NCBI GenBank assembly: GCA_965242965.1
Contig: OZ251518.1
Coordinates: 4,192,001 to 4,256,000, forward strand
DNA length: 64,000 nt
From: Candidatus Poribacteria bacterium
GTDB lineage: Bacteria; Poribacteria; WGA-4E; WGA-3G
Reading direction: 5' to 3'
The translations under genes were made by a program, and so were the position numbers. Below, piece after piece: positions 28,699 through 48,793 of this stretch. The first letter of the stretch is position 1. Each line of letters starts with the position of its first letter. The notes under the pieces were generated by a model, which was given only the letters and a program-made list of their open reading frames with translations, searched no databases and was not told where the DNA came from.

Positions 28699-30486
28699 AT
28701 GCAAACAGAAACCAAAGTTCACCACCCACCAGACGAACAGCATATCCTGCTCACTAGCCTTGGCAGGAATGCCATTGAAACGGAATACAAATGGCAAGGA
28801 GACCGGAAAATTACCGCATCTCTCACACCACTTGCATTAGTGCAGTTTCTCCAAGCGGAGGAACGTCCTAATCGCGTTGTCACGTTGGTTACGGAAAAGG
28901 CTCAGCGAGACACATGGCCAATCTTTCAGGAGGGGATACTCGAGGTTCTTGGAGTTACCCCGGAAATGGTTGAGATTTCTATCGGCAGTACCGACGATGA
29001 AATCCGCCAGATTCTTGCGGCTGTCGCCAGCAAAATTCCCGCAGGCGCGCAACTCACACTTGATGTGACGCAGGGGCTCCGCCATTTTCCGTTCATCTTT
29101 TACGCGCTGGCGCTTTACCTGAAATCGCTGCGCGGTGTCAAGGTGCGCGGAGTCTACTACGGCATGGTAGATGCATTTCCAAAAGAGGCACCCAAACCGA
29201 TTATTGACTTGCAACCGCTATTGGCATTGCCGGAGTGGTTTCATGCGGTGCGGATGTTCCGGGAACACGGGACAACCTCGCCGATAGCAGAACTGCTTCA
29301 ACCTCTCGCGCCGAGGCTTCGGCAAGAAAAACCGGAACTGTTTGACTCCGGTGACAGGGATGCCAGGCGCGAACGAGATCAGTTAGCAAGGCAAGTTGAA
29401 CGGGCTGTTGATGCATTGGAAAAATACGCGTTTGCTTATGAATCTGCCTTACCTCTCGAATTGGGAGCTGCCAGCGGGGAACTCAGCACTCGTATTGAAA
29501 CACTTGCCACGCTCAACATCCCAGGGACTCCACCCCTCGCTACGGAATTAGCGACGGCGGTTACCGAGGCAGCCGAAGAGACTGTCTTTGCAGTGCACCC
29601 TGGGAGAAAAGGGAATTGGAAAACGCGAGTGCCTTTGGACGAAAATGAGTTAGTCCGCCAAGCGCGTATGATTGACAGGTATCTGGCGCGCGAACAATTG
29701 CCATTGGCGTTTGGCTTGATGCGTGAATGGGTAGTCTCTTGGGCCATCTTTCAATCGGACGAGCCAACCGAGCGATGGTTGGATAACGGAAGCCGCCGAC
29801 GCTACGAGCAACGCCTGGGCGCGCTCGGCGAATTCGCGAGGAATCCAGCGTTTCGAGACATCATCACGCCAGCACAGCAGGTTTTTGGCACCTTCTGGCA
29901 TCGGTTGACAAACCAACTCCGCAACGCATTACATCACCATGGAATGCGCGAAGAAGTTGTCAAACAGCCGCTTCCCTCGCTTCAAGAGGTGCAAGAATTC
30001 TGGAATCGACTGAAAGAAATGGACATGGAATTGCCCACGTTGGGTGGTGGTAAAGGCACGTTGCTACTTTCGCCACAAGGGACACGGCATGGCGTGTTGT
30101 TCTCTGCACTAAAAGTCGCAAAACCTGATACCTGCGTTGTTATTTGTTCGGCGGCGACAGCAGGCAGCATTCAGGAAGCAGCCAAACGCGCGGGGTTTGA
30201 GGGTAAGATTGAAAAAATTGAATTGGCAGAACCGCACGGTGGCTATGCCGAAATCGCGCAGGCGGTAGCACAAGCACGGGAGGAACTGTTGAATGCCGAT
30301 GCCGTTGTCGCCAACCTGACAGGCGGCACGACGCTGATGGGCATAGTCGTCCAGCAGATGACAGAAGAGGCGAGCAAGTTGGGTCGCGATGTCCGCCGTT
30401 TCGCCCTGGTCGATCGCAGGCCACCAGTCGAGCAAGATAACAACCCGTTTGTGCAAGGGGAGGCATACTGGCTGGATACAACCTGA
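28699..30486 (+). CDS. csx1: Csx1/Csm6-like CARF-HEPN ribonuclease with a second CARF-like C-terminal domain
   Basis: LLTSLG, LDVTQGLRHFP (TM1812-type CARF), RNALHH (RxxxxH HEPN), C-terminal LLLSPQG...ANLTGGTTLMG. Confidence 0.8.
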   Translation: MQTETKVHHPPDEQHILLTSLGRNAIETEYKWQGDRKITASLTPLALVQFLQAEERPNRVVTLVTEKAQRDTWPIFQEGILEVLGVTPEMVEISIGSTDDEIRQILAAVASKIPAGAQLTLDVTQGLRHFPFIFYALALYLKSLRGVKVRGVYYGMVDAFPKEAPKPIIDLQPLLALPEWFHAVRMFREHGTTSPIAELLQPLAPRLRQEKPELFDSGDRDARRERDQLARQVERAVDALEKYAFAYESALPLELGAASGELSTRIETLATLNIPGTPPLATELATAVTEAAEETVFAVHPGRKGNWKTRVPLDENELVRQARMIDRYLAREQLPLAFGLMREWVVSWAIFQSDEPTERWLDNGSRRRYEQRLGALGEFARNPAFRDIITPAQQVFGTFWHRLTNQLRNALHHHGMREEVVKQPLPSLQEVQEFWNRLKEMDMELPTLGGGKGTLLLSPQGTRHGVLFSALKVAKPDTCVVICSAATAGSIQEAAKRAGFEGKIEKIELAEPHGGYAEIAQAVAQAREELLNADAVVANLTGGTTLMGIVVQQMTEEASKLGRDVRRFALVDRRPPVEQDNNPFVQGEAYWLDTT

Positions 30487-30494
30487 AAAAAAGT

Positions 30495-30649
30495 TTGACA
30501 AAAATGCGAGATGATGTTAAACTTTATGCATCAATTGGAGAAAGTCTCAAGAAAGTTGAGACGCGCAGCCTCGGTGGCAGGGAATCAAAACCATTAAACC
30601 ATAAAACCGCCCCCAAATATTGACAAAAAATGCGGCATAATGTTAAACT
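30495..30649 (+). promoter_or_regulatory. Tandem duplicated sigma70-like promoters upstream of cas10
   Basis: TTGACAAAAATGCGAGATGATGTTAAACT (30495) and TTGACAAAAAATGCGGCATAATGTTAAACT (30620). Confidence 0.65.
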
Positions 30650-30718
30650 AGAAGGGAACATTCTTAGCGTGACATATTGGGCAGAACCACTAGAAACAAC
30701 AAAGCATCAGAGGGGTTT

Positions 30719-33322
30719 ATGACACGAGACTGGAAAACCGGTAAACCTATTGAGGAAGCACGGCATCGGTGGAAAGATCTGATTCTTGACGATGCTTTCG
30801 GCATCACGCAGGCGGACTGGGACACCGTCATTGAGCAAACCGCTGCGCACATTCGGCGTTGGGATGCATTCAACATTGCCGAACGGATTGCTTGCATGGT
30901 GGAGTTGCTCGCGCCGCCGCTCCAAAGGTTATGGCAAGGAAAAGAGGGCGAAGTGCCGTTCCGATGGCTACCGTGCCGTTCGCTCCCTGGCGCGACTGTG
31001 GCGGACCACGGGTTGACTGCCGCCGCCATCGCATATTGCCTCGGTTACGATAACGGCTTCCGGTCTGATACTGAAACGTTGGACCTGCTCCGTCTCTCTG
31101 CACTGACAGCGACATGGCAAGACGATGGACTCGGCGAAGTCTACGACGCGGTCTGGAACGGACTCTTCCCCATCGCGCCAAACGCAACCGGTGACACGTT
31201 AGCACAAATCGTGCATCTGGCGAAAACTGCCGCTGCTGAACGCCTATGCTTTATCAATTCACACTGGCAGGCTCCGAACGCCGAAGAAATTAATGATGCG
31301 CTTGAAACTATCCTCGGCACCGCCGCTTTTGCGTCGCACCCGCTCAAACAAGAGAACGGGTTAACCCAAAAGCAAATCGGTTTGGTGCTTGGCGGTGCCA
31401 CGAAGATAAAAGCCTATTTCCTTGAATCAGCGAAACTGCCGGAAATTCGCGGGGCGAGTGCACTGCTAGACAGACTGAATCTAGAAGATATTCCAGCCCT
31501 CTTTGGACAAGATATCCGCGGCGACGCGCCAAGAACTGAACGTCTACGTAACGCGTTTTGTGAACGGACAGGGCACCGGTTGTCGGCACCCGAATGTATC
31601 ATCTATGTAGCCGGTGGGAACACGCTTGCGTTTACCCCGGTTTCTGTCGTTCACCAGATTGCCGATGAAATGGAGCGGCTTTACAGCCAAGAAACGCTTG
31701 TCGCTAACAGCGTTGCTGTCGGTGAATGTTTTGATTTGCTTGAATTGCAATATGGTTTGAACCCGGCGCAGTTTTGGCTTGAAGAGTTCGCCCAAGCGTG
31801 CGAAAACCCGAAAACTACGGCACTGATGCAGCACGCTTACGGCGGCAAAGCGGCGACAGATTTTCTCAGCAAGAAGTGTTTCGGCGAGTTAACGACGAAG
31901 TTGGCACGCGCGCAATTCCATCGCCGAGAAGGGAACCCAACGCCACATCGCACCACACAGCGCAATCTACCGACATCCGTTGAACTCGTTTCTTATCAGG
32001 AACGCTGCGCGAGTTGTGAGCGAAGACCGGCGGTGATGCGTCACCCTCGGAGGCTCTGCGAGGCGTGCACCCGAAAGTCCGTTACCGGACGCATCGCCAA
32101 ACGCAACGTCACCCCTGAGGACTTGCATCACTATTTGCAGGTGCTGCACCCCTGGGCTCCCTCCAGCCAAAACGCTCAAGGGGAATGGTGTCTCCAAGAC
32201 TGGAGTTCGCTCTTTGAAACCTATCTAGAGGTTATGGGAAAAGCCGACTGCTATGCGCAGTCTACCGAGCACCTTGAAAAGATTGAGGGGCCCCGAGATC
32301 TGGAGGATATCGCCACGGCAAGCAAACCCGGCGGTTTCGTGACATTCATCTACGCAGATGGCAACAACATGGGCAGCTATTTAGAGAATGTTGCAACACC
32401 GGCACAGTACCGGCAGTTTTCGGAACGCGTGTTTCTCGCACTCCAGCAAGCGACATTTGACGCATTGGCGGTGCAGCTGACTCCCACTCAAAGGAATCGC
32501 CACCCGTTTGAAATTGTCTCCATCGGCGGCGATGATCTGGTGCTAATTGTACCTGGCAGTAAGGCGTTTGAAGTCGTTCATGCTATCGGCGAAAACTTTG
32601 ACAGGACGTTTGAGAGCCGCGCCCAGTTTGCTGAAACACTCCGTCCATCGCAACGATATACCCCGAAGGAATGGTTTGATAACCGAGAGATGCAACCCGC
32701 GATAAGCCTCTCCCTTGGTTTTGTCATTGCAGCCGAACACACGCCCATTGCGTTCTTGGAGCATCTCGCCGGCAGCCTGCTGAAATCGGCGAAAAAACAA
32801 GCGAAGACACTGAAAACACCGGACATCGGATACCTTGGCGGCACCGCGGATTTTCTGGTGCTGAAGTCGCTCTCCATGATTACCAGCGAACTGGGTGATT
32901 TCCGGAAGCGGTTCTATCACTTCGGTGAAGAAGAAACGGACGCGCTCACGATGCGTCCCTTCACCTTGCATGAATTGGACGGCTTCATCAAAACAGTGCG
33001 CGCCTTCAAAGACAGCGAATTCCCGCGTTCCCAACTGTATCAACTGCGGCAATCGCTCCACCTCGGCAGGATGACATCAACACTAGAGTATCTCTACTTT
33101 CGCTGTCGGCTAAGCGATGGAAAAGGCGAAACACTGCAACGCGAGTTGGAAGAAAACTGGCAGGGAACTGAAAGAGGCGTGAACTTGGGACCGTGGTATC
33201 CAAAGGGCACGGAGCCGGAACGCTACGAAACGTTGCTGTTGGATCTGATTGAGGCGTATGATTTTATCGCCAGCACCAACGACGAAACGGAGAGGAACGC
33301 TAATGGCAGAAGCATCAATTGA
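30719..33322 (+). CDS. cas10: Type III-D Cas10 with an intact cyclase motif and no evident HD nuclease
   Basis: IKAYFLESAKLPEIRGASALL, YVAGGN, CxxC pairs, YADGNNMG, SIGGDDLV. Confidence 0.92.
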   Translation: MTRDWKTGKPIEEARHRWKDLILDDAFGITQADWDTVIEQTAAHIRRWDAFNIAERIACMVELLAPPLQRLWQGKEGEVPFRWLPCRSLPGATVADHGLTAAAIAYCLGYDNGFRSDTETLDLLRLSALTATWQDDGLGEVYDAVWNGLFPIAPNATGDTLAQIVHLAKTAAAERLCFINSHWQAPNAEEINDALETILGTAAFASHPLKQENGLTQKQIGLVLGGATKIKAYFLESAKLPEIRGASALLDRLNLEDIPALFGQDIRGDAPRTERLRNAFCERTGHRLSAPECIIYVAGGNTLAFTPVSVVHQIADEMERLYSQETLVANSVAVGECFDLLELQYGLNPAQFWLEEFAQACENPKTTALMQHAYGGKAATDFLSKKCFGELTTKLARAQFHRREGNPTPHRTTQRNLPTSVELVSYQERCASCERRPAVMRHPRRLCEACTRKSVTGRIAKRNVTPEDLHHYLQVLHPWAPSSQNAQGEWCLQDWSSLFETYLEVMGKADCYAQSTEHLEKIEGPRDLEDIATASKPGGFVTFIYADGNNMGSYLENVATPAQYRQFSERVFLALQQATFDALAVQLTPTQRNRHPFEIVSIGGDDLVLIVPGSKAFEVVHAIGENFDRTFESRAQFAETLRPSQRYTPKEWFDNREMQPAISLSLGFVIAAEHTPIAFLEHLAGSLLKSAKKQAKTLKTPDIGYLGGTADFLVLKSLSMITSELGDFRKRFYHFGEEETDALTMRPFTLHELDGFIKTVRAFKDSEFPRSQLYQLRQSLHLGRMTSTLEYLYFRCRLSDGKGETLQRELEENWQGTERGVNLGPWYPKGTEPERYETLLLDLIEAYDFIASTNDETERNANGRSIN

Positions 33323-35171
33323 GAAACGGTGGAAAATTACTGCAACCGTTGATACCGCACTCTGTATCGGCGATAGCGGGGTTAGCGACACCTCCGCAGA
33401 CACGACAACCGTGAAGACGAGCGATGGGAGACTTTACATTCCTGCCTCAACCTTCAAGGGCACTTGGCGACACGCCTGTGAGGCAATTGCGCGCGGACAG
33501 GAACACTTCGTCTGCAACAGCCCACGTGCAGAAACGATGTGCGCGGAAGCCCACTGCGTTGTCTGTCAACTCTTCGGAGCACCGACGTTGGCGGCCAAAA
33601 TTTTCCTGAGCGATTTAGCCGCGGCGACAGAATTGGCGGCGCAATCTACCGAAATCCGAAACGGGGTGACTCTCAATCGCCAGCGAAGAACTGCTGAAGA
33701 ACAACGGCTCTATTTCACGGAAACGAGCTTATCCCACGCGGGCATTGCGTTTTCAGGGGATGTCACACTAGCGAATGAAGTTACGGAGGCACAGATTGAA
33801 CTGCTGAAGGCAGGACTTCAGGCCATTCACGCAATAGGAACGGGAAAATCACGCGGGCTCGGTTGGTTGAATATTGAAATTGAACGAGAGGAAAAGGAAA
33901 CTTTCGATGCAGGTTCATCAATAGAACCAGCTCTTTCAGAGGGGTTCACCGAGTTAGCTATTGAAGTCACCCTGCAGTCGCCGATGACTGCGGGTGGGCG
34001 CAAACCAACAGGACAAGCCGTTGAAGCGGTTCAATACGTTCGCGGTGGATTAATCCGCGGTGCTATAGCGAAGGCGTGGCTGGCAGCCCCTGAAAACGGT
34101 GAACCGGACGCTGACTTCCAGCAACTGTTCCTCAGTAACGAAGGCGGTATCTTCCGAAATTGTTATCCCGCCGCAAATGTCTTGCCCGCGACAGCAGTGG
34201 GATGCAAGGATTTCCCGGGGTTCCTCAGCGCAGGCGTTAGCGAAGCACACGGCATTTTTGATACGCTTTTGGAGCAACTCGCCTCGGAACACGCAAATTG
34301 GCTGATATCGCCCAATTGCCCGCATTGCGGCGGGCGCGTGGAAGCACAAACCGGGTTTTATGCACAACGAAACGATGCAACTTATGAACGGAAAACCGTC
34401 AACACTCGGCTGCTCACCCGCGTGGCTATCAACCGACATCGCAAGGTGGCAGAAGAGGGACTGCTCTATCACTTGACAGCCATTGATACGGTAGTAACTG
34501 AAAGCGGAACTGGCCGTTTGCACGGTTCCGCGCGAGTCCCATCACGCCTTGCAAGTCGCGTCGCGGAGACGCTGCAAAAACAGGTGCATCGCCTCGGCGG
34601 TGGCACATCGCGCGGGCTCGGCTGTGTCCACGTGAAGGTGCAACAATGCGAGCATCCCGACGCTTTGGCACAACGCATTCGCGATTTCAACGCCTTGTTG
34701 CAAGAGATATGGGAGGTGTATCGTCACCTCCCATCAGTAGCGATGGAAACGCTGGAAAGCACCTACTTCAGCATCGATTTGCAAGCCGACACACTGCTCA
34801 CTGCCGAAGATGGATGGCAACGCAGTATGGTGCTGAACGCGCCGATGCTGCAACAGATAACGGGATGTAATCTCCCAGTCAAACTCGTGCGCAGTTTCGC
34901 CAGTTACGATTATGTCAGCGGATGGAACGCGGCGTGGGGACTGCCAAAAGAGACAGCACTTGTCACGCGGATGGGGAGTGTCTTTGTGTTTCACACCCCG
35001 GATATTGATGCATGGATGCCGGTATTAAAGACGCTTGAAGAGCAGGGTATCGGCGCGCGGCGAGAAGAAGGGTTCGGGCAGATGTTGGTGTGTGCCCCGT
35101 TCCATCTCCGAACGCGAACAAAGGTTAAATGCGCAGCCCAGTGGCTGGGCAACGCGGAGGAATCGAAATGA
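33303..35171 (+). CDS. csx10: Csx10 (Cas7-Cas5 RAMP fusion)
   Basis: YIPASTFKG, C..C.LFG, IGTGKSRGLG, second RAMP YVRGGLIRGA, LGGGTSRGLG, GIGARREEGFG. Confidence 0.85.
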   Translation: MAEASIEKRWKITATVDTALCIGDSGVSDTSADTTTVKTSDGRLYIPASTFKGTWRHACEAIARGQEHFVCNSPRAETMCAEAHCVVCQLFGAPTLAAKIFLSDLAAATELAAQSTEIRNGVTLNRQRRTAEEQRLYFTETSLSHAGIAFSGDVTLANEVTEAQIELLKAGLQAIHAIGTGKSRGLGWLNIEIEREEKETFDAGSSIEPALSEGFTELAIEVTLQSPMTAGGRKPTGQAVEAVQYVRGGLIRGAIAKAWLAAPENGEPDADFQQLFLSNEGGIFRNCYPAANVLPATAVGCKDFPGFLSAGVSEAHGIFDTLLEQLASEHANWLISPNCPHCGGRVEAQTGFYAQRNDATYERKTVNTRLLTRVAINRHRKVAEEGLLYHLTAIDTVVTESGTGRLHGSARVPSRLASRVAETLQKQVHRLGGGTSRGLGCVHVKVQQCEHPDALAQRIRDFNALLQEIWEVYRHLPSVAMETLESTYFSIDLQADTLLTAEDGWQRSMVLNAPMLQQITGCNLPVKLVRSFASYDYVSGWNAAWGLPKETALVTRMGSVFVFHTPDIDAWMPVLKTLEEQGIGARREEGFGQMLVCAPFHLRTRTKVKCAAQWLGNAEESK

Positions 35172-35635
35172 GCCGAATAGAACACATTCCAGCGCAGCTG
35201 ACGACGGTGTTAATGGAAAAGGAAATTGGCTTGCGGATGGAAGTGCTTATCCCCAAGATGCAAAAGATGGCGAAAGACTACAACCTGCGCGAGGAACATT
35301 CGCCGTTCCGGAACGTGTTGAATGTCGCCACCGACGCAGCTGGCGGGATTGAGGTAACACAGAATTTTATCCGCTATCAACTCGGACGGAGCGGTGCCAA
35401 CCGGATATGGAGCAGCACCGTCGGCGGCAAAAAATTCGCTGTAGCATTGGTAGAGGCAATTGAAGGTTTACGCGACGAAGCGAAAATCGTCGTTGAGAGA
35501 ATGGGCGCGCATTTGGATACCAAGTTGGATGACGCATGGCTGCAGCGCGTGCATGTCCGCCTCATGCAGCTCTACCTCGGCAACCTCGTCCGTTACCAAG
35601 TGTTTCTGGCGAAGGAAAAAGGAGGAAGGAAGTAA
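35168..35635 (+). CDS. cas11: Cas11/Csm2-like small subunit
   Basis: All-helical ~155 aa with NFIRYQLGR, positioned between csx10 and cas7. Confidence 0.7.
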   Translation: MSRIEHIPAQLTTVLMEKEIGLRMEVLIPKMQKMAKDYNLREEHSPFRNVLNVATDAAGGIEVTQNFIRYQLGRSGANRIWSSTVGGKKFAVALVEAIEGLRDEAKIVVERMGAHLDTKLDDAWLQRVHVRLMQLYLGNLVRYQVFLAKEKGGRK

Positions 35636-36447
35636 TGTTTGACACCTTTCATTCGCGACTCAATCTACAAGGCGAACTTGAAACGCTCACGGCGTTTCGC
35701 ATCGGTGCAGGCCGCTCAACCTCTCCTGTCAGCGCAGATCTGCCTGTCGTGCGCGATGCCGCGAATCTCCCCTACATCCCCGGCTCTAGTTTCAAGGGAG
35801 TGCTCCGTTCTTACGTTGAGAGCGTCATGCGGAGTTTGTCGGCTGAGACGCGCATCGTCTGCAATCCGACGGATAACCAGGTGCAGTGCATCACGTCAAA
35901 CCAGATGCAGAATCTTCGACAGGAGCGTGACAACCACCGATGGGACAGCGCGCGGTTCAGCGAAGAAATCTTGGCGCGAACCTGTTGGGTTTGTCAAGTC
36001 TTCGGTTCGCCTTGGTATGCATCCAAACTTCACATTCGCGACCTGCCCGTCCAGTCATCCCTCTGGTTTGGGCAATATCAGCAACGTGATGGTGTCGCGA
36101 TCGACCGCGATACCGAGACAGCCGCCAACCAGAAACTCTACGGTTACGAAGTCGTTCCAGCCGGCATCCGATTCGACTTTCGCGCCGTTGTTGATAACGC
36201 CGAGGATTGGCAACTCGGCCTGTTGTATACCGGGCTCGCTGCTTTTGAAAACAACCGTTTGACTCTTGGCGGTGGCAGCAGCCGCGGACTCGGGTTAGTC
36301 CACCTATCGCTTGCATCCGAATGCTACATCGACAAACAGCATCTGATGAAGCACCTGACAGCGGGATATGAAGGCGAAGCGGCAGAACGTCAGGCGTGGC
36401 TGCAAGCGTTTCACGCCAAAATCGAACAGCAATTGGAGACGCGGTAA
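35635..36447 (+). CDS. csm3: Cas7/Csm3 RAMP
   Basis: FRIGAG..SADLPVVRD, PYIPGSSFKGVLR, C..CQVFG, GVAIDRDT, LGGGSSRGLG. Confidence 0.9.
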   Translation: MFDTFHSRLNLQGELETLTAFRIGAGRSTSPVSADLPVVRDAANLPYIPGSSFKGVLRSYVESVMRSLSAETRIVCNPTDNQVQCITSNQMQNLRQERDNHRWDSARFSEEILARTCWVCQVFGSPWYASKLHIRDLPVQSSLWFGQYQQRDGVAIDRDTETAANQKLYGYEVVPAGIRFDFRAVVDNAEDWQLGLLYTGLAAFENNRLTLGGGSSRGLGLVHLSLASECYIDKQHLMKHLTAGYEGEAAERQAWLQAFHAKIEQQLETR

Positions 36448-37394
36448 TGCACAAGCGGATTGTCAACCAAGCCACGATTGAACTCGCGATTTCGCCCGTG
36501 GGTCCACTGCTCATCAAAGCGGGCGACCAGGGGGCAGACCCGACGAAACCTGACATGGAGTTCGTTGAAACCTACCACGCGGGGGGCAGGAGCGTCTATC
36601 TCCCCGGGTCATCGCTCAAGGGCGCGATGAGGGCGCACTGCGAACGCATTGTCCGAACCATCGGCGGTGCAAACCCGAATGCAGGAAACGTTTGGACGTG
36701 TAACCCCTTGAAAGAGACAGAACCGTGCCGCAATTTGCAAACGGAGCATCAGGAAGATACCGCTGCTATCTACCGAAATTCATGCACTGTTTGCCAACTC
36801 TTCGGTAGCACCGATATCGCCGCACACGCACGTATCGCCGATGCCTATCCTGTTGAACTAGCCGACATTCAACTGGAAGAACGGAATGGTGTCGCGATCG
36901 ACCGCGTCTACGGTTCAGTAGCCTACGGCCCGTTCAACTTCCAAGTGCTGACAGCCGGCGAATTCATCACTAAAATTATGGTGAAAAACTTCACCACCGC
37001 GCAACTCGCGCTCATCGCCCTGGCTATCCGCGATTTTGCAGAACAGCGGGTTGGACTCGGTTTCGCCAAATCACGTGGGTTAGGACAGGTGAATATGAAA
37101 GTTACGCGCGTGGAAATCCGGTACCCAACTGTCATCGTTGAAGAGGGACAATTGCAAATACTTGGACTCCACCGCGGGCGATTTGGCGACAATTGCCTCA
37201 TCGGTGCCGGCGACTTCGTCAACACGGATGAGCGGCAGGCTTACGGGTTCCCCGAATCCGACACGGTTGAGGCAACCGTGCATGCCCAACCCGATGCAAT
37301 TCTCGGTGCCACTCTCGTTTTTGAGGAACCAGATGCCATCACAGCACTATGGCGAGGCTGTGTGCAGTCTTGGCGGGAAACTGTCAGCCTGTAA
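36447..37394 (+). CDS. cas7: Cas7-group RAMP
   Basis: YLPGSSLKGAMR, C..CQLFG, GVAIDR, LGFAKSRGLG. Confidence 0.88.
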   Translation: MHKRIVNQATIELAISPVGPLLIKAGDQGADPTKPDMEFVETYHAGGRSVYLPGSSLKGAMRAHCERIVRTIGGANPNAGNVWTCNPLKETEPCRNLQTEHQEDTAAIYRNSCTVCQLFGSTDIAAHARIADAYPVELADIQLEERNGVAIDRVYGSVAYGPFNFQVLTAGEFITKIMVKNFTTAQLALIALAIRDFAEQRVGLGFAKSRGLGQVNMKVTRVEIRYPTVIVEEGQLQILGLHRGRFGDNCLIGAGDFVNTDERQAYGFPESDTVEATVHAQPDAILGATLVFEEPDAITALWRGCVQSWRETVSL

Positions 37395-37431
37395 CGGCGG
37401 ATGTCTTCACATCCGCCCGTGAGGAGAACCG

Positions 37432-37920
37432 ATGGAGAAAGCAATTGTTGCAACCGCGCACGTGCCAGACGTGTCAACGCTCGTAGCGCAAATTGACACG
37501 CTCACGTTCGGCGAACGAACCTATTATCTGCTCCAACGGCCTGATTCCATCTCCGATTGGACAGCCGGCTGTCCTGACACCGCCGAAATTCAAAAATATG
37601 CCCTCGGCCGACTGTTTGGAGAAAACGGCGAACTGCGTTGGCAGAAAATCGATACCGGCTATACGCTACTTTGGCTTTCCGAAGGGGAATTGCCGGCAGG
37701 ATTTGCACCGATGGGGACATGGGAGATGACAAAATCCCCAGACCAGCTGCTACTCGGCGGCGGCGAGACGGAGCCGTGGCGGGATACGCGCATCCCCCGA
37801 AAACTAGCATATCCCATGGCATGGAGTCAGTCGCCAAAGGTGCGGGTAATTCAGTATCGTGACAGAGACTTGCAAACTATCCGGTTCACGCGCTATACCG
37901 GTTTCATTCAGGGAGGTTAA
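37432..37920 (+). CDS. csx19: Csx19 (type III-D subunit)
   Basis: GRLFGENGELRW, LLLGG, V..Y...IRFTRY tail; size and position typical of III-D. Confidence 0.75.
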   Translation: MEKAIVATAHVPDVSTLVAQIDTLTFGERTYYLLQRPDSISDWTAGCPDTAEIQKYALGRLFGENGELRWQKIDTGYTLLWLSEGELPAGFAPMGTWEMTKSPDQLLLGGGETEPWRDTRIPRKLAYPMAWSQSPKVRVIQYRDRDLQTIRFTRYTGFIQGG

Positions 37921-37924
37921 AAAC

Positions 37925-38911
37925 ATGGGATACCCCCGACATGGCGGAAGAAGTGGCGGCAGACAGTCTCAGCAGCCAGACCCCAAACCTTTCGACTTCG
38001 TATCCCTGCCCCATCGTGTAGCTCGGAAAAAGCCCATTGGGCATGAACAGTATCACGCGGCACACCTAACAGGCCAGCTGCAAGGCACCCTTGAGGCACT
38101 CTCGCCTCTCCATATCGGCAGCGGTATCATTGAACTGGGGCAGGATGTTGAACTCATCAAAACGGTGGTGCGGACAGGCGGGAGAGTCGTCATACCCGGC
38201 AGCTCCCTCAAAGGGGCGATTCGGAGCATCGCCGAGGCGATTTCGGAGAGCTGCGTTTGCAAAGTCTCACGAGATGCACAACGCGCACTACCTAGAGACT
38301 TTCAGGAATGCAGACAGAAAGAACGCTTGTGCATCGCTTGTCGGATATTCGGTGCGATGGGATTTCAGGGAAACGTTGCAATCCAAGACGCACCCCACAT
38401 TCACGGACAAATCGTCACGGCACAGGTTCCCGAACTCTATCGCCCGCGAATCCGCCGAGGCGCGCGAGACGTGCCAGGGCGCAAATTTTACATGCACGGA
38501 CAAGTCGCCTCGGGCCGAACCCCTGTAGAGGCATGCGATGTCGGTTCCAGGTTCCGATTCATTATGCAGGTAGATAACCTGACGCAAGCGGAGTGGGGAC
38601 TCTTGCTTACAGCCTTAGGCCAACACCCCGACTATCCGTTCAAACTGAAGATGGGCGGAGCTAAGCCAGTCTGCTTCGGTTCAATGGACGTTCAAATAGA
38701 ACAGATCCAACTTGAAGACCAGGCTCGCGACCGGTATTTGGCGTGGGATGTGCGTCCGGAAGCCGCAAAAACCGGCGCGCCGTTGGAAATGTGGATACGC
38801 GACTGCATTGCGCAAGCAGCAGATTCACTCATCGTGCAGGATTTACTGGAAGACCTGGCTCAAATCCTGCGGCACCCAAACCAACGCAACTGCCCATCTG
38901 GGCTCTATTGA
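37925..38911 (+). CDS. cas7: Cas7-group RAMP (Csm5-like)
   Basis: PFDFV, LSPLHIGSG, IPGSSLKGAIRS, C..CRIFG, GRKFYMHG, KMGGAKPVCFG. Confidence 0.85.
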   Translation: MGYPRHGGRSGGRQSQQPDPKPFDFVSLPHRVARKKPIGHEQYHAAHLTGQLQGTLEALSPLHIGSGIIELGQDVELIKTVVRTGGRVVIPGSSLKGAIRSIAEAISESCVCKVSRDAQRALPRDFQECRQKERLCIACRIFGAMGFQGNVAIQDAPHIHGQIVTAQVPELYRPRIRRGARDVPGRKFYMHGQVASGRTPVEACDVGSRFRFIMQVDNLTQAEWGLLLTALGQHPDYPFKLKMGGAKPVCFGSMDVQIEQIQLEDQARDRYLAWDVRPEAAKTGAPLEMWIRDCIAQAADSLIVQDLLEDLAQILRHPNQRNCPSGLY

Positions 38912-38922
38912 GGAAGGCACTG

Positions 38923-39552
38923 ATGCAAACGCAGCAGATGAACGAAAAACTGTGGAAAATCGCCCACAAACTCGCGTTTGATTTAGTTGACTGGGGCACC
39001 GATCCCAATGAACTCGGCAAAGTCATCGCGTTTGTGCGTCGGCACCAAGACGATACCGACGCGAAATCGCGGCTCATGCTGCTGGTGCAGCGGTTGGCGA
39101 GTAGCCGCAACGCGCTTATCCGGAGCCGGCAAACACAGGGATTTTATCAAAATATTCAAGAAGCATTCAGCGAACATCTCCGCGATATCAGCAATCCCGC
39201 TGAAATCCTGCTTATTCTCGGCTGGAGCCTACGGTTGATGCGTTACTATCGTGCGGAACCGACGTTTGCTGTTGAATATGAATTTGAGCCGTCCCCGGTG
39301 AATTCACCTGCGCCGCCTACACCGAAACCGGATCCACCGAAACCGGATCCACCGAAGGTCAAGGCCGGGGACAGGGTAAATGCGACGGTTCTGAAGAAGG
39401 ATGGCTTCAAGGTGACAGTGCGATTAGAGACTGACGCACGCGAAGAAGTCTCCTTTGAAGGTCCTTATTATCCCGGCCTGGTCGGCGCACAAGTTAAGGT
39501 GAGGGTCCAGAGGGTTGATAAGGGCGGTCGGATAACCAAAGTCATTCCGTAG
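38923..39552 (+). CDS. CRISPR-linked helical protein with Pro-rich linker and C-terminal S1/OB-like domain
   Basis: Helical N-domain (ILGWSLRLMRYY), PKPDPPKPDPP linker, KAGDRVNATVLK...VKVRV beta-domain. Confidence 0.65.
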   Translation: MQTQQMNEKLWKIAHKLAFDLVDWGTDPNELGKVIAFVRRHQDDTDAKSRLMLLVQRLASSRNALIRSRQTQGFYQNIQEAFSEHLRDISNPAEILLILGWSLRLMRYYRAEPTFAVEYEFEPSPVNSPAPPTPKPDPPKPDPPKVKAGDRVNATVLKKDGFKVTVRLETDAREEVSFEGPYYPGLVGAQVKVRVQRVDKGGRITKVIP

Positions 39553-39581
39553 AAAATACGCTTGAGTCTGGAGGTAAAGGC

Positions 39582-40832
39582 ATGATTTTTAGAAATGCAG
39601 TTGCTGAAAGGGATGGCATCAATCCGCGCGAGGAACTGGAGAAATTCGTGATCGGTAATCGCGCGCACATTAAACAGAGTCGTGTTAATGAGAAAATCGG
39701 CCATGAGTTAAAATCCTGCGACGAAGATGTTTGGCTCACGGAACTGGTTCGGACTCAGAATCCTTATACTGTTCTTGAGGCATGCTTTGCCTCGGGGCGA
39801 TTGCATAATTTGGCTGCCAACCGCCGCTGGGTTAGTCTTGACTCGGAATATGAAGGACGCGAACTTGTGGGGGAAATTCTAGAGGCGTTGGGCTTTAGAA
39901 AGGAAGTAAAGCCTTCGGGTCTTACGCAAATTCGAGAAGAAATCGATCCGCGCTTGGAACCTGCCGAAGTTGACCCACAACGGTTTGCAGCAGAAGAAGC
40001 CCTTGACTTTGCCGCCGGAATGGGAACAGTCATGGAAGCATTGTTGGATAAATTATTCCGTTTCCATAGCGAAACGTTCCTCCGGCATGCTGAACTAACA
40101 GCGGCGGACATTGACAAACTACGTGATCAGTATCGGCGAACGCGCCCACGAACGCTAGGTCGTTATGTGGGACTCCAGAATGACGAAAAGGGCGATAAAC
40201 GTGGATTTTTGGCAAGACTAATGAAATTTGCAGAAGAAGACGCAGCACTTATCGCCTACTGTGACAGGTACTTTCAGCGGATAGTGCCCTTGGACGAGAG
40301 TGAGATTGCTGCTGTTGGTATGTTCACGATATACCGCAACTGGATTGTCCATAATATATGGGACTGGACCCAATACCCGCGCATCCTAAATAATGCTCAA
40401 ACTAACTTGTTAAGCATGGATGAGGCAACTCGCGGCGAATGGGAGAGAAGTTGGCAGCAGGTAACTGAAGCGGTTGATTGGGCAAAGAAAAACGGGGATC
40501 CCGAACCCGCTCTTCCAAAACGTGAGATGCTCCAAAGGATGGCTGTTTTCTTCAGGGCCTTCCTTAAATCGCTATCCCAAGGAATCTACCCCAAAGTCAT
40601 TGTGATGCAGTCCTACGTCGTCGACAATTATGGAACTCATCAAATTACCGCGGAGGACGATGCAGGAGAGACAGTCTTCCTTACCGACTGTGAATTCGAG
40701 CCATTTACGGAGTTCTACTATCTGGCACATACCAATCTTGTTGGCATTGAACCAATTCTCGTGAGGAAAGATGAACTAGGGAAGTGGGGAATTCAACAGG
40801 ATAGCATGGACGCATCACAGAAGGAGGCTTAA
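39582..40832 (+). CDS. Uncharacterised protein with putative HEPN motif inside the cas operon
   Basis: 416-aa ORF with GGAGG RBS; MEALL helix, RTLGRY, RNWIVH (RxxxxH). Confidence 0.65.
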   Translation: MIFRNAVAERDGINPREELEKFVIGNRAHIKQSRVNEKIGHELKSCDEDVWLTELVRTQNPYTVLEACFASGRLHNLAANRRWVSLDSEYEGRELVGEILEALGFRKEVKPSGLTQIREEIDPRLEPAEVDPQRFAAEEALDFAAGMGTVMEALLDKLFRFHSETFLRHAELTAADIDKLRDQYRRTRPRTLGRYVGLQNDEKGDKRGFLARLMKFAEEDAALIAYCDRYFQRIVPLDESEIAAVGMFTIYRNWIVHNIWDWTQYPRILNNAQTNLLSMDEATRGEWERSWQQVTEAVDWAKKNGDPEPALPKREMLQRMAVFFRAFLKSLSQGIYPKVIVMQSYVVDNYGTHQITAEDDAGETVFLTDCEFEPFTEFYYLAHTNLVGIEPILVRKDELGKWGIQQDSMDASQKEA

Positions 40833-40835
40833 AGC

Positions 40836-41843
40836 ATGCCGAAAAACGTGCTCTTATCATCACTCGGATTATCACCCGCTGTTGTCACCGAAACGATTGA
40901 TGCCCTTCAAAACACCGGCATCCGAATTGACACGGTGGTGCTGCTCACCACTGCAAACGAACGGATTGTCAACACATACATTCCGCTACTGCAGGACGAC
41001 TTTGCCGATACTTACGGGGGAAGAATTGAACTCACCTATGCTCCCATTACGAACAATGACATTTGGACAGCACAGGATAATCTGGAATTCATCGGGTTAG
41101 CCACCGCGTATCTGAATACCCATCGGAAGCGGGGAGATAACGTCTATGTCAGCATCGCAGGCGGCAGGAAAACGATGTCCGCCGCTTTAGCAATTGTGAC
41201 GCAACTTTTCGGCGCGAAAGGGTTGTATCATGTCCTCACCCTGGAAGAGGTCGAGAAACAACACCACCCTTACGAATCGCTGAGAAACGCACCTGAAAAA
41301 CGTCGCGAGGCTCTTCACCCAGATGTCCAGTTGATGGAGCTCGTCTCCATTCCCGTCGTCGGGCTGTTTCCGTATCTGAGCCAAATCACCGGTGTTTTGC
41401 AGGGAGATACCGCTCAGGCTGAAGCGAATGTGACAGATTTGCTTCGTGACAATGAACTCATTGATGACGAGGGAAAGATAACGCCGGCAGGCAGCAACCT
41501 CTTGAAAATCTTGAGCGAAGTGGAAACCGCGCCGGAACCCTCCACTATCCCGCCGAACCAAAAAGAGATTCGCGTCCCCCGCCATAATATCCCGAAACAG
41601 GAAGAGGAGAAGCTGCGGACTATCGCCAACCGGATATGCTATGATCCGTTTGTGAATCGCATTGCAACCACGGATTGGAACTCGCAAACGCAGCAGCCTT
41701 ACCGAATCAACCCGGATAATTCGATTACCCTCTTTATCCCGAAGACCACGAAGGGGTTAACGCTTAGAATCTTTACCACGGCGAACACACGAGCGCAAGC
41801 CGAATACGTCGCGCAAAGATTGTTGCTCGCCGTGAGCCGATAA
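40836..41843 (+). CDS. NE0113/Csx14-type CARF protein with wHTH and small C-terminal domain
   Basis: LLSSLGLSPAVVTET, SIAGGRKTMSA, LYHV; LI...GKITPAG (wHTH-like); ~90-aa alpha/beta tail. Confidence 0.8.
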   Translation: MPKNVLLSSLGLSPAVVTETIDALQNTGIRIDTVVLLTTANERIVNTYIPLLQDDFADTYGGRIELTYAPITNNDIWTAQDNLEFIGLATAYLNTHRKRGDNVYVSIAGGRKTMSAALAIVTQLFGAKGLYHVLTLEEVEKQHHPYESLRNAPEKRREALHPDVQLMELVSIPVVGLFPYLSQITGVLQGDTAQAEANVTDLLRDNELIDDEGKITPAGSNLLKILSEVETAPEPSTIPPNQKEIRVPRHNIPKQEEEKLRTIANRICYDPFVNRIATTDWNSQTQQPYRINPDNSITLFIPKTTKGLTLRIFTTANTRAQAEYVAQRLLLAVSR

Positions 41844-41874
41844 CACCATTGAAATCGGAGAGACGGAGAGAATC

Positions 41875-42864
41875 GTGTCTGCACAGAAACCGTTATCAAA
41901 CGCCTTGCGAATGACAAACTTCCAATTCGCCCGATACCGCTTCACCTATACCGTCCAAGAACCGCTACGGATGCCACCCGACAAAGGCAACATCTTCCGC
42001 AGCCGACTCGGATACACACTGCGCGACATCACCTGCCTGGGACACGAAAACGCATGCGCAAAGCAGTGCCAACACCCAGAACGGTGCGTCTACTCGCAAT
42101 GTTTTGAAACACCCGTGCCGGAAAACGCGCCGTTTCTCCGCGGACAACCCTTCGCGCCGCATCCGTTCATACTCGAACCACCGCTCACAGGGAAACAGCA
42201 TTACGCTCCCGGCGATACCTTCGCCTGCACACTCATCCTCATCGGCAGCGCCATCAACCTGCTCCCGTGGCTAGCGTTCACCTTCAATGAAATCGGCAAA
42301 CGCCGCATCGGACTTCGCGGCCGGCGCGGGAAGTGTGAACTCAACACCATTGAGAGTCTTCCTGCGCGCGGCACCGAGCCCCCCGAAACGATTTATACCT
42401 CCCAAACCGAGAGGCTAATGGGAGCAGGTAGGCTTCTCCGCCTTGACGATGTGCTACGCGGCGCGCCGCACGTCACCGACACGCTTACACTTGATTTCCG
42501 AACGCCGACGAGCCTCAAAGTGGAGGGACGCTGGATGCGCGACGTGACGTTTGAATTGCTCATCCGCAATCTCCTCCGACGCATCCGGTTCTTGAGTTAC
42601 TTCCATTGTGGCGAAGACCTGGGTGTGGATGCACATGCTTTGCTGAAGGCGGCGAGGGCTGTCACGCATACCTCGCACTTGCAATGGGTGCGGAAGGAAC
42701 GCCGGTCTTTCCGAACAAAGCGTGTTGTCCCGATGGGTGGGTTCGTTGGTAAAGTTCGGTTCGCGGGAGAGTTGTCCCCGTTTCTGCCGCTGATTTTCTT
42801 GGGAGAATATCTCCACATTGGGCATCACACTGCATTTGGGTTCGGGCAGTATCGCATCTGTTAA
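41875..42864 (+). CDS. cas6: Cas6 crRNA-processing endoribonuclease
   Basis: PHPFILEPP, F.TPT, GGFVG, terminal G-loop HIGHHTAFGFGQY. Confidence 0.9.
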   Translation: MSAQKPLSNALRMTNFQFARYRFTYTVQEPLRMPPDKGNIFRSRLGYTLRDITCLGHENACAKQCQHPERCVYSQCFETPVPENAPFLRGQPFAPHPFILEPPLTGKQHYAPGDTFACTLILIGSAINLLPWLAFTFNEIGKRRIGLRGRRGKCELNTIESLPARGTEPPETIYTSQTERLMGAGRLLRLDDVLRGAPHVTDTLTLDFRTPTSLKVEGRWMRDVTFELLIRNLLRRIRFLSYFHCGEDLGVDAHALLKAARAVTHTSHLQWVRKERRSFRTKRVVPMGGFVGKVRFAGELSPFLPLIFLGEYLHIGHHTAFGFGQYRIC

Positions 42865-43085: not shown

Positions 43086-44694
43086 GTTTGGATACACCGT
43101 CCCGGTTGAAGGGAATAGAAACTATTAATAATATAGCCGAATGGGATCGGAATTCTTAAGTTAGGAAACGCCTTCCCGTTTGAAGGGAATAGAAACTGAC
43201 CACCAGTGCATTCCGCTGCCACCATGCCAGCAGACCCGTTTGGAAACGCCGTCCCGGTTGAAGGGAATAGAAACACAAACGAAGCCTTGGCTGCCAGCGC
43301 AGAGACATCCGTTCGGAAACGCCGTCCCGGTTGAAGGGAATAGAAACGCCGCAATCATACCAGCAGACGCTCGGAATCTTGCAGTTTGGAAACGCCGTCC
43401 CGTTTGAAGGGAATAGAAACGTCAAGGTCCGATGGTTAAGTTGGTGCGAGGACCAGGTTTGGAAACGCCGTCCCGGTTGAAGGGAATAGAAACAGTATCC
43501 GTCCTTTCTTGATGGCGACTGAATGCCCCGTGCATCGTTCGGAAACGCCGTCCCGTTTGAAGGGAATAGAAACTTTACTTTTTTGCCGATTGCAACGCCT
43601 CGACAATCCTGTCGTTTGGAAACGCCGTCCCGTTTGAAGGGAATAGAAACTTTAGCCATCCACTATTCCAAGTGTCATAATACTTTTGGAAACGCCTTCC
43701 CGGTTGAAGGGAATAGAAACTTCCCGATGTAGCCTTCTTCGCGGGCTTGGTCTAGCGTAAGTTTGGAAACGCCTTCCCGGTTGAAGGGAATAGAAACGTG
43801 CCAGCCTGATCGACGGCTGCATACGCATTCTTGACTTGTTTGGAAACGCCTTCCCGGTTGAAGGGAATAGAAACAACTGGCTAAATCAAGTTCGGATGAG
43901 AGCGTTAAGATATGTTTGGAAACGCCTTCCCGGTTGAAGGGAATAGAAACTCGTAAGACACTTGTGATACCTTGTCCCCGTTGAGTTTGGAAACGCCTTC
44001 CCGGTTGAAGGGAATAGAAACTTTCCTTCGGTCAGCCTTAAGTTGACATTCCCCGTTGAGTTTGGAAACGCCTTCCCGTTTGAAGGGAATAGAAACTGAT
44101 AATGGCTCGGCATCGCTATCCGTCTTGACGTTTGGAAACGCCTTCCCGGTTGAAGGGAATAGAAACCCATGATGAACCGCAGCTAGCTCTTTATTGCCAT
44201 CGTTTGGAAACGCCTTCCCGTTTGAAGGGAATAGAAACTTGCCTCGACCTCGTTGAAATTCATATCAAATCCCAAGTGTTTGGAAATGCCTTCCTGTTTG
44301 AAGGGAATAGAAACGCGAGGGAAGCCCGCTGCGCTACCTCTTTCGCAAGGTTGAGTTTGGAAACGCCTTCCCGGTTGAAGGGAATAGAAACTTTAGAATC
44401 CGGAGATTTTCTTCGGCATCAAAAAGCCGAGTTTGGAAACGCCTTCCCGGTTGAAGGGAATAGAAACCCAGTCGTCTTACAGGTTAGCGCATGATTAATT
44501 ATCGTTCGGAAACGCCTTCCCGGTTGAAGGGAATAGAAACATAGCCGCACACCGATGCTGTCCACCGGCAAGCCACAAGTTTGGAAACGCCTTCCCGGTT
44601 GAAGGGAATAGAAACTCATAGTACTCGATCGTAGGTCCATATTTGTCGCAATAGCATGTTCAGAAACGCCTTCCCGCTTGAAGGGAATAGAAAC
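43086..44694 (+). CRISPR. CRISPR array 2: 22 repeats, 21 spacers
   Basis: Same 37-bp repeat family (variants CCCGG/CCCGT, GCCG/GCCT); first, second and last repeats diverged. Confidence 0.98.
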
Positions 44695-45199: not shown

Positions 45200-45470
45200 G
45201 GCTCAAGGGATTTGTCGGTAGGCACCCCGGGTCTCCATACCTCCCGGTAGGAGAGGCCTCGGGTCTTGATTTTCCCGTAGCGCGGGGGCCCTCGGATGCC
45301 ATACGCGCATCCGAGCGGGTTTCCCCCGCGATCGTTCCCGGTAGGAGAGACCTCCTGGTCTCGATTTTTTGTCACTATCGGGACAAGGATGTCCCTCCTA
45401 CGGGAAGTCGGGACAAGGATGTCCCGCCTACCGAGTGCATATCGGGACAAGGATGTCCCGCCTACCCATC
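45200..45470. repeat. REP cluster
   Basis: GTAGGAGAGACCTCCTGGTCTCG, GTAGCGCGGGGGCCC, tandem TCGGGACAAGGATGTCCC.CCTAC. Confidence 0.75.
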
Positions 45471-48661: not shown

Positions 48662-48793
48662 GTCGCTTCGCTCCGTTAAGGTTAACCGGATAACTCGATC
48701 GATTCTAAAAACATCGCTGCAACCGACGGAAACGCACCACACGATTGCAGCGATGGAAGGACGGATCCGAACATCCGCCCTTACCCAAACACC

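Follow-up and report, generated by a model that had tools for sequence, protein, structure and literature searches.

How could a ribonuclease-like accessory protein serve a type III CRISPR system if it carries no sensor of its own? As a rule, the accessory nucleases of type III systems respond to Cas10 by way of CARF or SAVED domains that sense cyclic oligoadenylates (cOA); gating of a type III effector by protein-protein contact is, to our knowledge, known only from the single-protein III-E system. The question is raised by an open reading frame at 39582..40832 of the window, meaning the whole stretch of 64,000 nucleotides analyzed here (contig OZ251518.1 of a Candidatus Poribacteria bacterium, positions 4,192,001 to 4,256,000); we use the working name gene X for it and protein X for its product.

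Gene X belongs to a type III-D cas operon on the forward strand (28699..42864), which runs csx1, cas10, csx10, two copies of csx7, csx19, a RAMP gene, csx21, X, a CARF5 gene, and cas6. An earlier note on this DNA had assigned the locus to type III-D, and the assignment stands: Cas10, Csx10 (TIGR02674, 1e-97), two Csx7 proteins (TIGR02581, 5e-59), Csx19/Cas11, a TIGR03986-like RAMP, Csx21, and Cas6 are all present, with CRISPR arrays adjoining. Array 1 (27240..28546, forward strand) and array 2 (43086..44694, forward strand) flank the operon with 18 and 22 repeats of 37 bp, 40 together. The palm domain of Cas10 carries GGDD at residue 617, and nowhere in the 881 aa of the protein is there an HD dipeptide. 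The upstream csx1 (28699-30486, forward strand; PADLOC) encodes a CARF-HEPN-CARF protein. The gene upstream of X that had been described as S1-tailed is csx21 (38923..39552, forward strand; PADLOC Csx21, 5e-37), whose product combines a helical N-terminal domain, a Pro-rich linker, and an S1-like C-terminal stretch; Csx21 is listed as a type III-D-associated protein of unknown function (PMC6546367). Downstream of X lies a CARF5 (Csx14/Crn1-like) gene (40836..41843, forward strand; PF09623, 1.6e-34; PADLOC CARF5, 1e-61), which also matches the NCBIfam ring nuclease Crn1 at 3.7e-12, below the cut-off.

Gene X is read on the same strand as the operon, starts with ATG, and encodes 416 aa of no named family. 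It has its own GGAGG ribosome-binding site, read from the sequence at 39570..39574 (forward strand), 7 nt before the ATG. The gap to the csx21 stop codon (39550-39552) is 29 nt, and the CARF gene begins 3 nt past the stop of X, in keeping with the tight packing that had been pointed out. The product is acidic (pI 5.1) and, as the earlier note had it, is devoid of a CARF, SAVED, or transmembrane domain. Searches gave no family match in Pfam or NCBIfam at an E value of ≤0.01 or in PADLOC at ≤0.1, nor when Pfam was repeated at ≤1, and nothing below an E value of 0.9 among PDB sequences; a profile of the X family found no match in the same family and structure libraries either, and none of the six sequences tried was present in the ESM Atlas. 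The same searches that found no CARF in X found it in four neighboring proteins. A CARF or SAVED domain hidden in the N- or C-terminal domain was considered and rejected, with no model match, a helical N-terminal domain, and a C-terminal domain of only ~65 aa. A membrane effector was likewise rejected, there being no transmembrane segment (top 19-aa Kyte-Doolittle window of 0.96; GRAVY of −0.48).

Is gene X a regular part of such operons? A search of 176 genomes found seven intact copies and three fragments, each immediately behind csx21 in a III-D operon, and no copy outside such operons. Linkage of the homologs to CRISPR loci, a point marked for checking, was therefore found in 7 of 7 readable loci, all of them cas10 operons of one Poribacteria family; this count is defined on the seven Poribacteria loci, with P0005 to P0024 and the Macro and kinase fusions described below standing outside it. 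The loci span three genera, and since all come from one bacterial family the seven contexts are not independent. Two metagenome scans and one viral scan yielded no further X loci. X is a conserved accessory of the type III-D operon in sponge-associated Poribacteria. It is also dispensable to csx21-bearing III-D loci, 8 of 18 of which lack X and 2 of which carry X remnants, and it evolves faster than its neighbors, with 34 to 43% identity between loci versus 54 to 72% for core Cas proteins.

Protein X has 15 homologs at 33 to 99% identity (the close set), and its family comprises 39 representatives at an E value of ≤1e-3, 12 of these at ≤1e-30. A "near" profile search added only P0054 to P0057, and a profile search limited to proteins of 1687 to 4815 aa (37-row alignment) gave no further relatives. 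The homolog clusters are named "hypothetical," plus one "O-acetyl-ADP-ribose deacetylase." Three domains, all encoded on the forward strand, can be distinguished in the alignments. The N-terminal domain (aa 1 to 134; 39582..39983) is mostly helical (75% helix by crude propensity on the alignment), with conserved P61, G104-F105, P111, and G113 and a stretch, L..LA...(x)..ELV..IL..LGF, that may resemble SAP/HeH motifs; it also occurs in the Macro and kinase fusions, and some family-search matches cover this domain only. The central HEPN-like domain (aa 135 to 335; 39984..40586) carries the E150 helix, F161, LG193, and RNxxxH, followed by a basic helix (316 to 335); its 53% helix and 16% strand, again a crude propensity, are compatible with a HEPN fold without being a test of it. 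An insert after the motif (aa 258 to 315; 40353..40526), in which W287 and W291 are invariant in the close family (alignments A1 and A2), is shared by the coiled-coil relative P0044 but not by the Macro and kinase fusions. The beta-rich C-terminal domain (aa 336 to 400; 40587..40781; 45% strand by crude propensity) is the best-conserved part, with an invariant P337 as well as D348 and P391. The stretches singled out earlier by eye, the "E..L..L" helix (E150), TLG (191 to 193), and YPKVIV...GIEPILV (336 to 394), all lie within protein X.

The candidate catalytic motif is RNWIVH (40335..40352, forward strand; R252 to H257), which indeed follows the HEPN-like Rx4H pattern that had been read there. 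R-x4-6-H occurs twice in protein X, at R34 and R252, and the bare string is not significant; it is the conservation that exceeds chance. At the aligned site the R is found in 37 of 37 relatives, the N in 36, and Rx4-6H in 34, so the motif whose conservation had been in question is kept. In this alignment of 37 sequences, with a mean column identity of 15%, only two columns are invariant, R252 being one of them; nine are nearly invariant, N253 and H257 included. The motif is retained even in relatives with only 19 to 24% identity, and the E-helix, LG, RNxxxH, and the following helix come in the same order in all clades.

Does this conservation extend to a recognizable HEPN domain? HEPN domains are all-alpha, roughly four-helix bundles with the motif at a helix start, and two motifs are brought together by dimerization or tandem duplication; a 2013 survey of the superfamily reportedly describes the motif as Rx4-6H, in which the R is usually followed by a polar residue (N/D/H). 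In profile-profile comparisons with hhalign, the best match was that of the Macro-clade profile to HEPN_Swt1 (P = 1.8e-4, 43 columns), followed by the CRISPR clade of X against the same family (P = 9e-4 to 1.8e-3, 32 to 33 columns); the X-family profiles gave P values of 0.009 to 0.043 against DUF4145 (28 to 40 columns) and 0.02 to 0.03 against HepT. For all three HEPN families tested, the best local alignment sits on the catalytic motif, and alignments span only 15 to 43 columns around this short information-rich motif, not the whole domain. Bona fide HEPN families compared with each other gave P values of 2.1e-4, 0.10, and 0.14, a range that the best Swt1-like match equals, and a 3-sequence Csm6 profile gave 0.1 to 0.6 against the X, Swt1, DUF4145, and HepT profiles. 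The Macro-clade score of 30.2 was attained by none of 100 column shuffles (mean, 10.9; maximum, 16.8), and the reversed profile scored 13.4; the score of the CRISPR-clade profile was attained by 6 of 100 shuffles, whose distribution was erratic (standard deviation of 29). Pfam HEPN models were not among the best 25 of 69 families for the 37 X members at an E value of ≤10, and in ten members listed singly one weak Pfam HEPN match appeared (P0045, 633 to 717, to HEPN_Swt1; E = 0.23). A PADLOC scan of the 37 members at ≤10 returned 71 families, the best 25 of which all hit the kinase fusion P0053. Run at ≤10 on five genomes that carry X, the HEPN_Swt1 model missed X itself. Weak matches to this model were seen downstream of X in two genomes, one of them inside a Csx1-like gene of G083. 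Overall, profile comparison gives marginal support for placing X among the HEPN proteins.

Taken together, the motif and its setting lead us to favor, with about even confidence, the reading that X is a sensor-less accessory of the III-D system, probably new, with a divergent HEPN-type ribonuclease center in which RNxxxH is the candidate active site. We infer a HEPN fold, RNase activity, dimerization, and an immune role for it. A module with a helical N-terminal domain, a HEPN-like center, and a conserved beta C-terminal domain would have entered the CRISPR operon without a fused sensor. A homodimer would then pair two RNxxxH helices, as in other single-HEPN proteins, and might cleave RNA in a metal-independent manner on triggering of the III-D system. 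The system, in which Cas10 has GGDD and no HD dipeptide, would thereby gain a second RNase arm.

Must the RNxxxH helix be catalytic at all? Mean identity to the X of the window is 69% (alignment A1) and 53% (A3) in the C-terminal domain versus 46% and 32% in aa 135 to 257, meaning that the key function may lie in the C-terminal domain; moreover, three of 37 members lack the His (P0012, P0019, and P0022, with RNLT[LM]KNPD), and hence catalysis is not universally required. Both observations would suit a noncatalytic adaptor or RNA-binding subunit, which would use the RNxxxH helix for binding or structure and have its function in the C- or N-terminal domain, for example, in tethering to the III-D complex or to RNA; so would the absence of any Pfam HEPN model matching the X members (E = 0.23 at best) and the constant place of X immediately behind csx21, where the core module ends. 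We nevertheless consider such a subunit unlikely, since the R and N persist at 19 to 24% identity and across unlike fusions, as is typical of a catalytic site, and the lack of X in 8 of 18 similar csx21-bearing operons is unexpected for a structural component.

The fusions just mentioned place X in a wider family. The whole three-part module is found behind a Macro domain in eight proteins (P0039, P0041, P0043, P0045, P0047, P0050, P0052, and P0056) and behind a Ser/Thr protein kinase in one, at 19 to 24% identity; named examples of the Macro fusions come from Sandaracinaceae and IMG metagenomes, and the distant fused relatives carry no cas annotation. The occurrence of the same module in other phyla behind Macro or kinase domains suggests a portable effector module, recruited into a CRISPR operon without a fused sensor. 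In six of the eight Macro fusions, a second RN[RQ]LxH lies upstream, recalling tandem-HEPN proteins.

These fusions also bear on the possibility that X regulates rather than executes the response, acting as a HEPN-type stand-alone off-switch that degrades cOA at its HEPN site or as a processor of crRNA or cas transcripts. Some Csm6 enzymes degrade cOA at the HEPN site. A HEPN-like motif without a sensor would fit such a role, as would the dispensability of X and the presence in every X locus of CARF effectors needing to be switched off, and there is a precedent: an ancillary CARF-HEPN ribonuclease of type III is reported to degrade the cOA that activates it, in an abstract that names no site (PMC6599890). 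The window, however, already has the Csx14/Crn1-like CARF5 gene, and the Macro- and kinase-fused relatives keep the module presumably without cOA, which makes a regulator quite unlikely.

Could the missing sensor be supplied by the neighboring gene? The earlier note had offered activation of X by the adjacent CARF protein, that is, in trans through contact with a cOA-sensing partner, and the 3-nt gap in the window would agree with it, as would the presence of a CARF gene behind X in all seven loci (immediately in six, after a small Csx16-like ORF in L013). The downstream CARF protein, however, differs between loci: it is CARF5 in the window, CARF7-RelE in L001, CARF1-HEPN Csm6 in L014 to L017 (the gene being incomplete in L016), and CARF2-HEPN, with Csx16, in L013. 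Activation by the adjacent protein is disfavored because the downstream CARF belongs to four clades across the seven loci. In addition, CARF effector genes follow csx21 in loci without X, in the slot that X otherwise occupies, so that the adjacency reflects a slot and not a pair; activation in trans is thus highly unlikely. Least probable of all is that X came into the operon as a separate conflict or toxin gene with no functional tie to type III immunity: its patchy spread (intact in 7 of 176 genomes), its fast evolution relative to the core genes, the remnants in two loci that indicate easy loss, and the Macro- and kinase-fused distant relatives without cas annotation would be expected of such a gene, but it would hardly keep one position and one strand, tightly spaced, in all seven loci from three genera, or have no copy outside III-D operons in the 176 genomes searched.

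If X is a ribonuclease of the III-D system, how would it be switched on? One doubtful proposal makes X the CRISPR-linked founder of a three-domain module not described before, driven elsewhere by the fused Macro or kinase domain and switched on in III-D systems without CARF or SAVED, either because X touches the Cas10 complex once this has bound its target, with Csx21 as a possible go-between, or because a Cas10 product binds to the beta domain or the Trp-rich insert. For a complex of Csx21 and X, structure prediction scored 0.00 against a mark of 0.32, which is no answer and speaks neither for nor against binding. Matches of the C-terminal domain and the center of X to Csx21 (hhalign P = 0.024 and 0.09, respectively) were rejected, since they fell on trivial stretches. 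Were the proposal true, a collateral RNase of a multi-subunit type III system would be activated in a novel way; more broadly, an active X may point either to a new kind of sensor domain or, in multi-subunit type III systems, to an effector gated by protein-protein contact. With seven intact copies in 176 genomes, all from a single Poribacteria family, the X family is small and taxonomically narrow, which limits its general importance unless the mechanism is new.

No description of the X family surfaced in the literature on Poribacteria and type III CRISPR, on HEPN with Macro domains, or on III-D accessories, nor was one of the Macro/kinase-fused family found in the libraries and literature searched; "Csx21" and "Macro" are absent from the main text of PMC12669027, and supplements to this literature may list the X cluster. 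Like Csm6 and Csx1 (CARF-HEPN), X lies in a type III operon beside effector genes and has an R-N-x-x-x-H motif in a helical region; unlike them, it has no CARF domain and has other flanking domains, and X shows no detectable sequence similarity to the 3-sequence Csm6 profile (hhalign P = 0.097). Real Csm6/Csx1 proteins are encoded in the same loci, at 28699-30486 in the window and by the genes after X in L014 to L017 (match to PDB 5FSH, 1.6e-28). With Swt1-like HEPN proteins (PF18731), X shares an aligned stretch running from a W/F-rich helix to an RNxxAH motif, but only about one-third of the domain aligns and no X member reaches the Pfam cut-off. The Swt1-like proteins of these genomes are mostly open frames of 240 to 1200 aa, many of ~1100 aa, and when the ORFs of 29 Swt1 loci were searched with the X profile (hmmsearch), the best E value was 0.02, in the same motif region, with no other shared part significant. 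The Macro fusions have the entire module in common with X, that is, the N-terminal domain, RNxxxH, and the beta domain; they differ from it in their length (590 to 800 aa), in their N-terminal Macro domain (PF01661), and in lacking the insert at 258 to 315. Through them, X connects CRISPR to a wider Macro- and kinase-fused family, which would represent a new candidate defense effector module. The remaining counterpart is Csx29, the protease of type III-E, an effector gated by direct contact with the type III complex. Its enzyme class differs from that proposed for X; like Csx29, X is an accessory that lies next to the effector genes and lacks a CARF or SAVED sensor, and it would be a conserved RNase-like accessory of this kind, fixed at the end of the effector-gene block.

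X, the 416-residue protein carrying an RNWIVH motif, is encoded at 39582-40832 (+) by an ORF that starts with ATG and has a GGAGG 7 nt 5' of it. The upstream gene stops at 39552, and the downstream gene begins 3 nt past the X stop codon. The earlier note took X for a sensor-less, HEPN-like effector of a type III-D operon, and its description of the sequence is borne out: the motif occupies residues 252 to 257 (40335-40352), and the "E..L..L" helix (E150), TLG (191 to 193), and C-terminal YPKVIV...GIEPILV stretch are all present. As it also held, X has no TM segment (top 19-residue hydropathy window, 0.96) and no CARF or SAVED domain; Pfam, NCBIfam, and PADLOC searches gave no other catalogued domain either. 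X matched none of the PADLOC cas-accessory models, and no solved structure resembling it by sequence was found.

The genes from 28699 to 42864 are all on the + strand and together form a type III-D system: a CARF-HEPN-CARF Csx1 (PADLOC, 1e-147), Cas10 (30677-33322, 881 aa), Csx10 (TIGR02674, 1e-97), two copies of Csx7, Csx19/Cas11, a TIGR03986-like RAMP, Csx21 (38923-39552; PADLOC, 5e-37), which the earlier note called the S1-tailed gene, X, a CARF5/Csx14/Crn1-like protein (PF09623, 1.6e-34), and Cas6. Two co-oriented arrays of the same 37-bp repeat bracket the operon, with 18 copies upstream of csx1 (27240-28546) and 22 copies at 43086-44694, where chance would give none; the first array was not detected by Tandem Repeats Finder. 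Upstream of the operon are housekeeping genes for a TRAP transporter and CTP synthase, and no cas1 or cas2 was found among the ORFs examined at about 15 to 50 kb of the window. Cas10, with GGDD at residue 617, probably lacks an HD nuclease domain, since a motif search found no HD dipeptide across all 881 residues. It also has two CxxC pairs (444 and 461), and its translation probably begins with the ATG at 30719 rather than the TTG at 30677. The csx1-cas10 intergenic region (about 30490-30660) contains two direct repeats that are nearly identical and resemble promoters (TTGACA...GTTAAACT). Both in the window (35129-35635, 168 aa) and in L001, a locus of a Poribacteria MAG (5593-6045, 150 aa), csx10 is separated from the first csx7 by a small ORF that every search run left unannotated. 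Csx21 has a helical N-terminal domain with an invariant SRNALIRS stretch, a Pro-rich linker, part of whose coding sequence is a 15-bp tandem repeat (39320-39356), and a C-terminal beta stretch that is S1-like.

A word-indexed search yielded 15 X homologs of 337 to 462 aa (33 to 99% identity), all unnamed and lacking Pfam domains, and an exhaustive representative search with X gave 39 proteins at E ≤ 1e-3, 12 of them at ≤ 1e-30. Ten long, weak matches were scanned: seven start with a Macro domain (PF01661) and one with a Ser/Thr kinase, while the other two are a coiled-coil protein and a protein with a weak DUF6079 match alone. An eighth Macro fusion was added by profile search. These long proteins align with all three parts of X, not with one alone. 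In the 37-row family alignment (mean column identity, 15%), only R252 and P337 are invariant, and nine more columns reach at least 90% conservation (P61, P111, G113, F161, G193, N253, H257, D348, and P391). At the motif, R is present in 37/37 rows, N in 36/37, and Rx4-6H in 34/37; the three members without His form a single subclade with RNLT[LM]KNPD. A second RN[RQ]LxH precedes the X-like module in six of the eight Macro fusions, where it follows the Macro domain. Directly after the motif, the CRISPR-linked proteins have about 55 additional residues (258 to 315, with W287 and W291 invariant), an insert missing from the Macro and kinase fusions. The best-conserved part of X is its beta-rich C-domain; within the close family it averages 69% identity to X, versus 46% for residues 135 to 257. 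X could hence be pictured as a noncatalytic adaptor that functions through this highly conserved beta domain, which we regard as unlikely; the motif is retained in most of the family.

Does the center of X have a HEPN fold? X profiles were compared by hhalign with three Pfam HEPN families, represented by sets from 176 genomes of the window's phylum (HepT-like, n = 28; Swt1-like, n = 27; DUF4145, n = 25). Central and full-length profiles of X gave P values of 9e-4 to 1.8e-3 over 32 to 33 columns with Swt1-like, 0.009 to 0.011 with DUF4145, and 0.02 to 0.03 with HepT. The central domain of the Macro-fusion relatives, which lacks the insert, gave 1.8e-4 with Swt1-like (43 columns, 48% probability), 0.043 with DUF4145 (40 columns, including the next helix), and 0.022 with HepT. 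For scale, true HEPN families gave 2.1e-4 (Swt1 versus DUF4145), 0.14, and 0.10 with each other, and a shallow profile built from the genuine Csm6 genes of these loci gave 0.1 to 0.6 with the X, Swt1, DUF4145, and HepT profiles. The aligned stretch is short, and in the best local alignment of every comparison RNxxxH falls on the catalytic motif of the family. None of 100 column shuffles reached the Macro-clade score of 30.2 (mean, 10.9; maximum, 16.8; reversed profile, 13.4), and 6 of 100, with an erratic distribution, reached that of the gap-rich profile of the CRISPR-linked clade. Pfam HEPN models matched no family member except P0045, a representative homolog (HEPN_Swt1, E = 0.23). X has the motif by which the HEPN superfamily is recognized, profile support for its membership is marginal, and the center of X rather probably adopts a HEPN fold, with Swt1-like HEPN as the nearest detectable family. 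Outside the window, the same genome has a Swt1-like HEPN domain (C1:2163897-2164244, E = 5.7e-7) in a 504-aa open frame; when the X profile was run against Swt1 loci with hmmsearch, this frame gave the best match, a weak one (E = 0.02).

The most plausible interpretation, at about even chances, is that X is a sensor-less, homodimeric HEPN-type accessory RNase. It would have been recruited from a broader group of conflict proteins with Macro or kinase fusions and would serve as an additional RNA-degrading arm in a III-D system whose Cas10 can make cOA and shows no HD motif. The gene, its conservation, motif, synteny, and dispensability, and the lack of known sensors are direct observations; the fold, catalysis, dimerization, and immune role are inferred. 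A nuclease of this kind might instead be regulatory, for example, a cOA off-switch, which seems distinctly improbable.

A pattern scan of public genomes found one X locus, L001, in a Poribacteria MAG. X matches occur in 10 of the 176 genomes from the window's phylum, all of one family; seven are intact (including the window's genome) and three are fragments. The order cas10-csx10-csx7-csx7-csx19-RAMP-csx21-X holds in 7/7 readable loci, all of them phylogenetically close, with 54 to 72% identity to the window proteins for the core and 34 to 43% for X. The next gene varies: CARF5 in the window, CARF7-RelE in L001, Csm6-type CARF1-HEPN in L014, L015, and L017 (with a PDB 5FSH match at 1.6e-28 for L017), a truncated version of the latter in L016, and, in L013, a 132-aa Csx16-like ORF (10622-11017; PADLOC, 3.4e-7) followed by a CARF2-HEPN Csx1. 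Full-length Csx21 is encoded by 18 of the 176 genomes; X is intact in seven of these, cut by the contig end in one (G116), reduced to a remnant in two, and undetected in eight. Both remnants (38 to 43 residues; G164:C1:3732726-3732854 and G147:C1:4243572-4243685) have internal stops and lie precisely between csx21 and the gene that follows, which shows that X is decaying at certain III-D loci. Five of the eight loci without detected X have a CARF4-PD-DExK or Csx1-like gene after csx21 (1.5 kb read); in G146, only 551 nt downstream are visible. X is thus a dispensable add-on with no fixed CARF partner, situated at an accessory position that separates the core module from the CARF effectors. Activation in trans by a CARF protein is very improbable, as the CARF neighbor of X differs from locus to locus. 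That X is a hitch-hiking conflict gene has the slightest chance of all.

Elsewhere in the window, short GC-rich palindromic tandem repeats (8956-9055 and 45377-45465; 34- to 35-bp units with GGGACAAGGATGTCCC) and 98- to 110-bp repeats (6789-7100 and 19908-20142) look like dispersed REP-like intergenic elements, and a long degenerate tandem repeat at 52253-53317 (periods of 42, 63, 126, and 252 bp) probably codes for a protein of repetitive sequence. An FRG-domain and TPR protein adjoins a WD40 beta-propeller protein downstream of the CRISPR locus (47504-48742 [-] and 48794-50377 [-]).

The X family is small and its CRISPR-linked clade narrow. No mention of X was found in passages of the 2018 accessory-gene survey (PMC6546367) and the 2025 classification (PMC12669027), the supplements of which might list it. 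The CARF domain that defines Csm6/Csx1 was tested for in X and is absent, so X is not a member of that group, although the two may work in a similar way. X would represent a new domain architecture among CRISPR type III accessory proteins, HEPN-like and without a known sensor.
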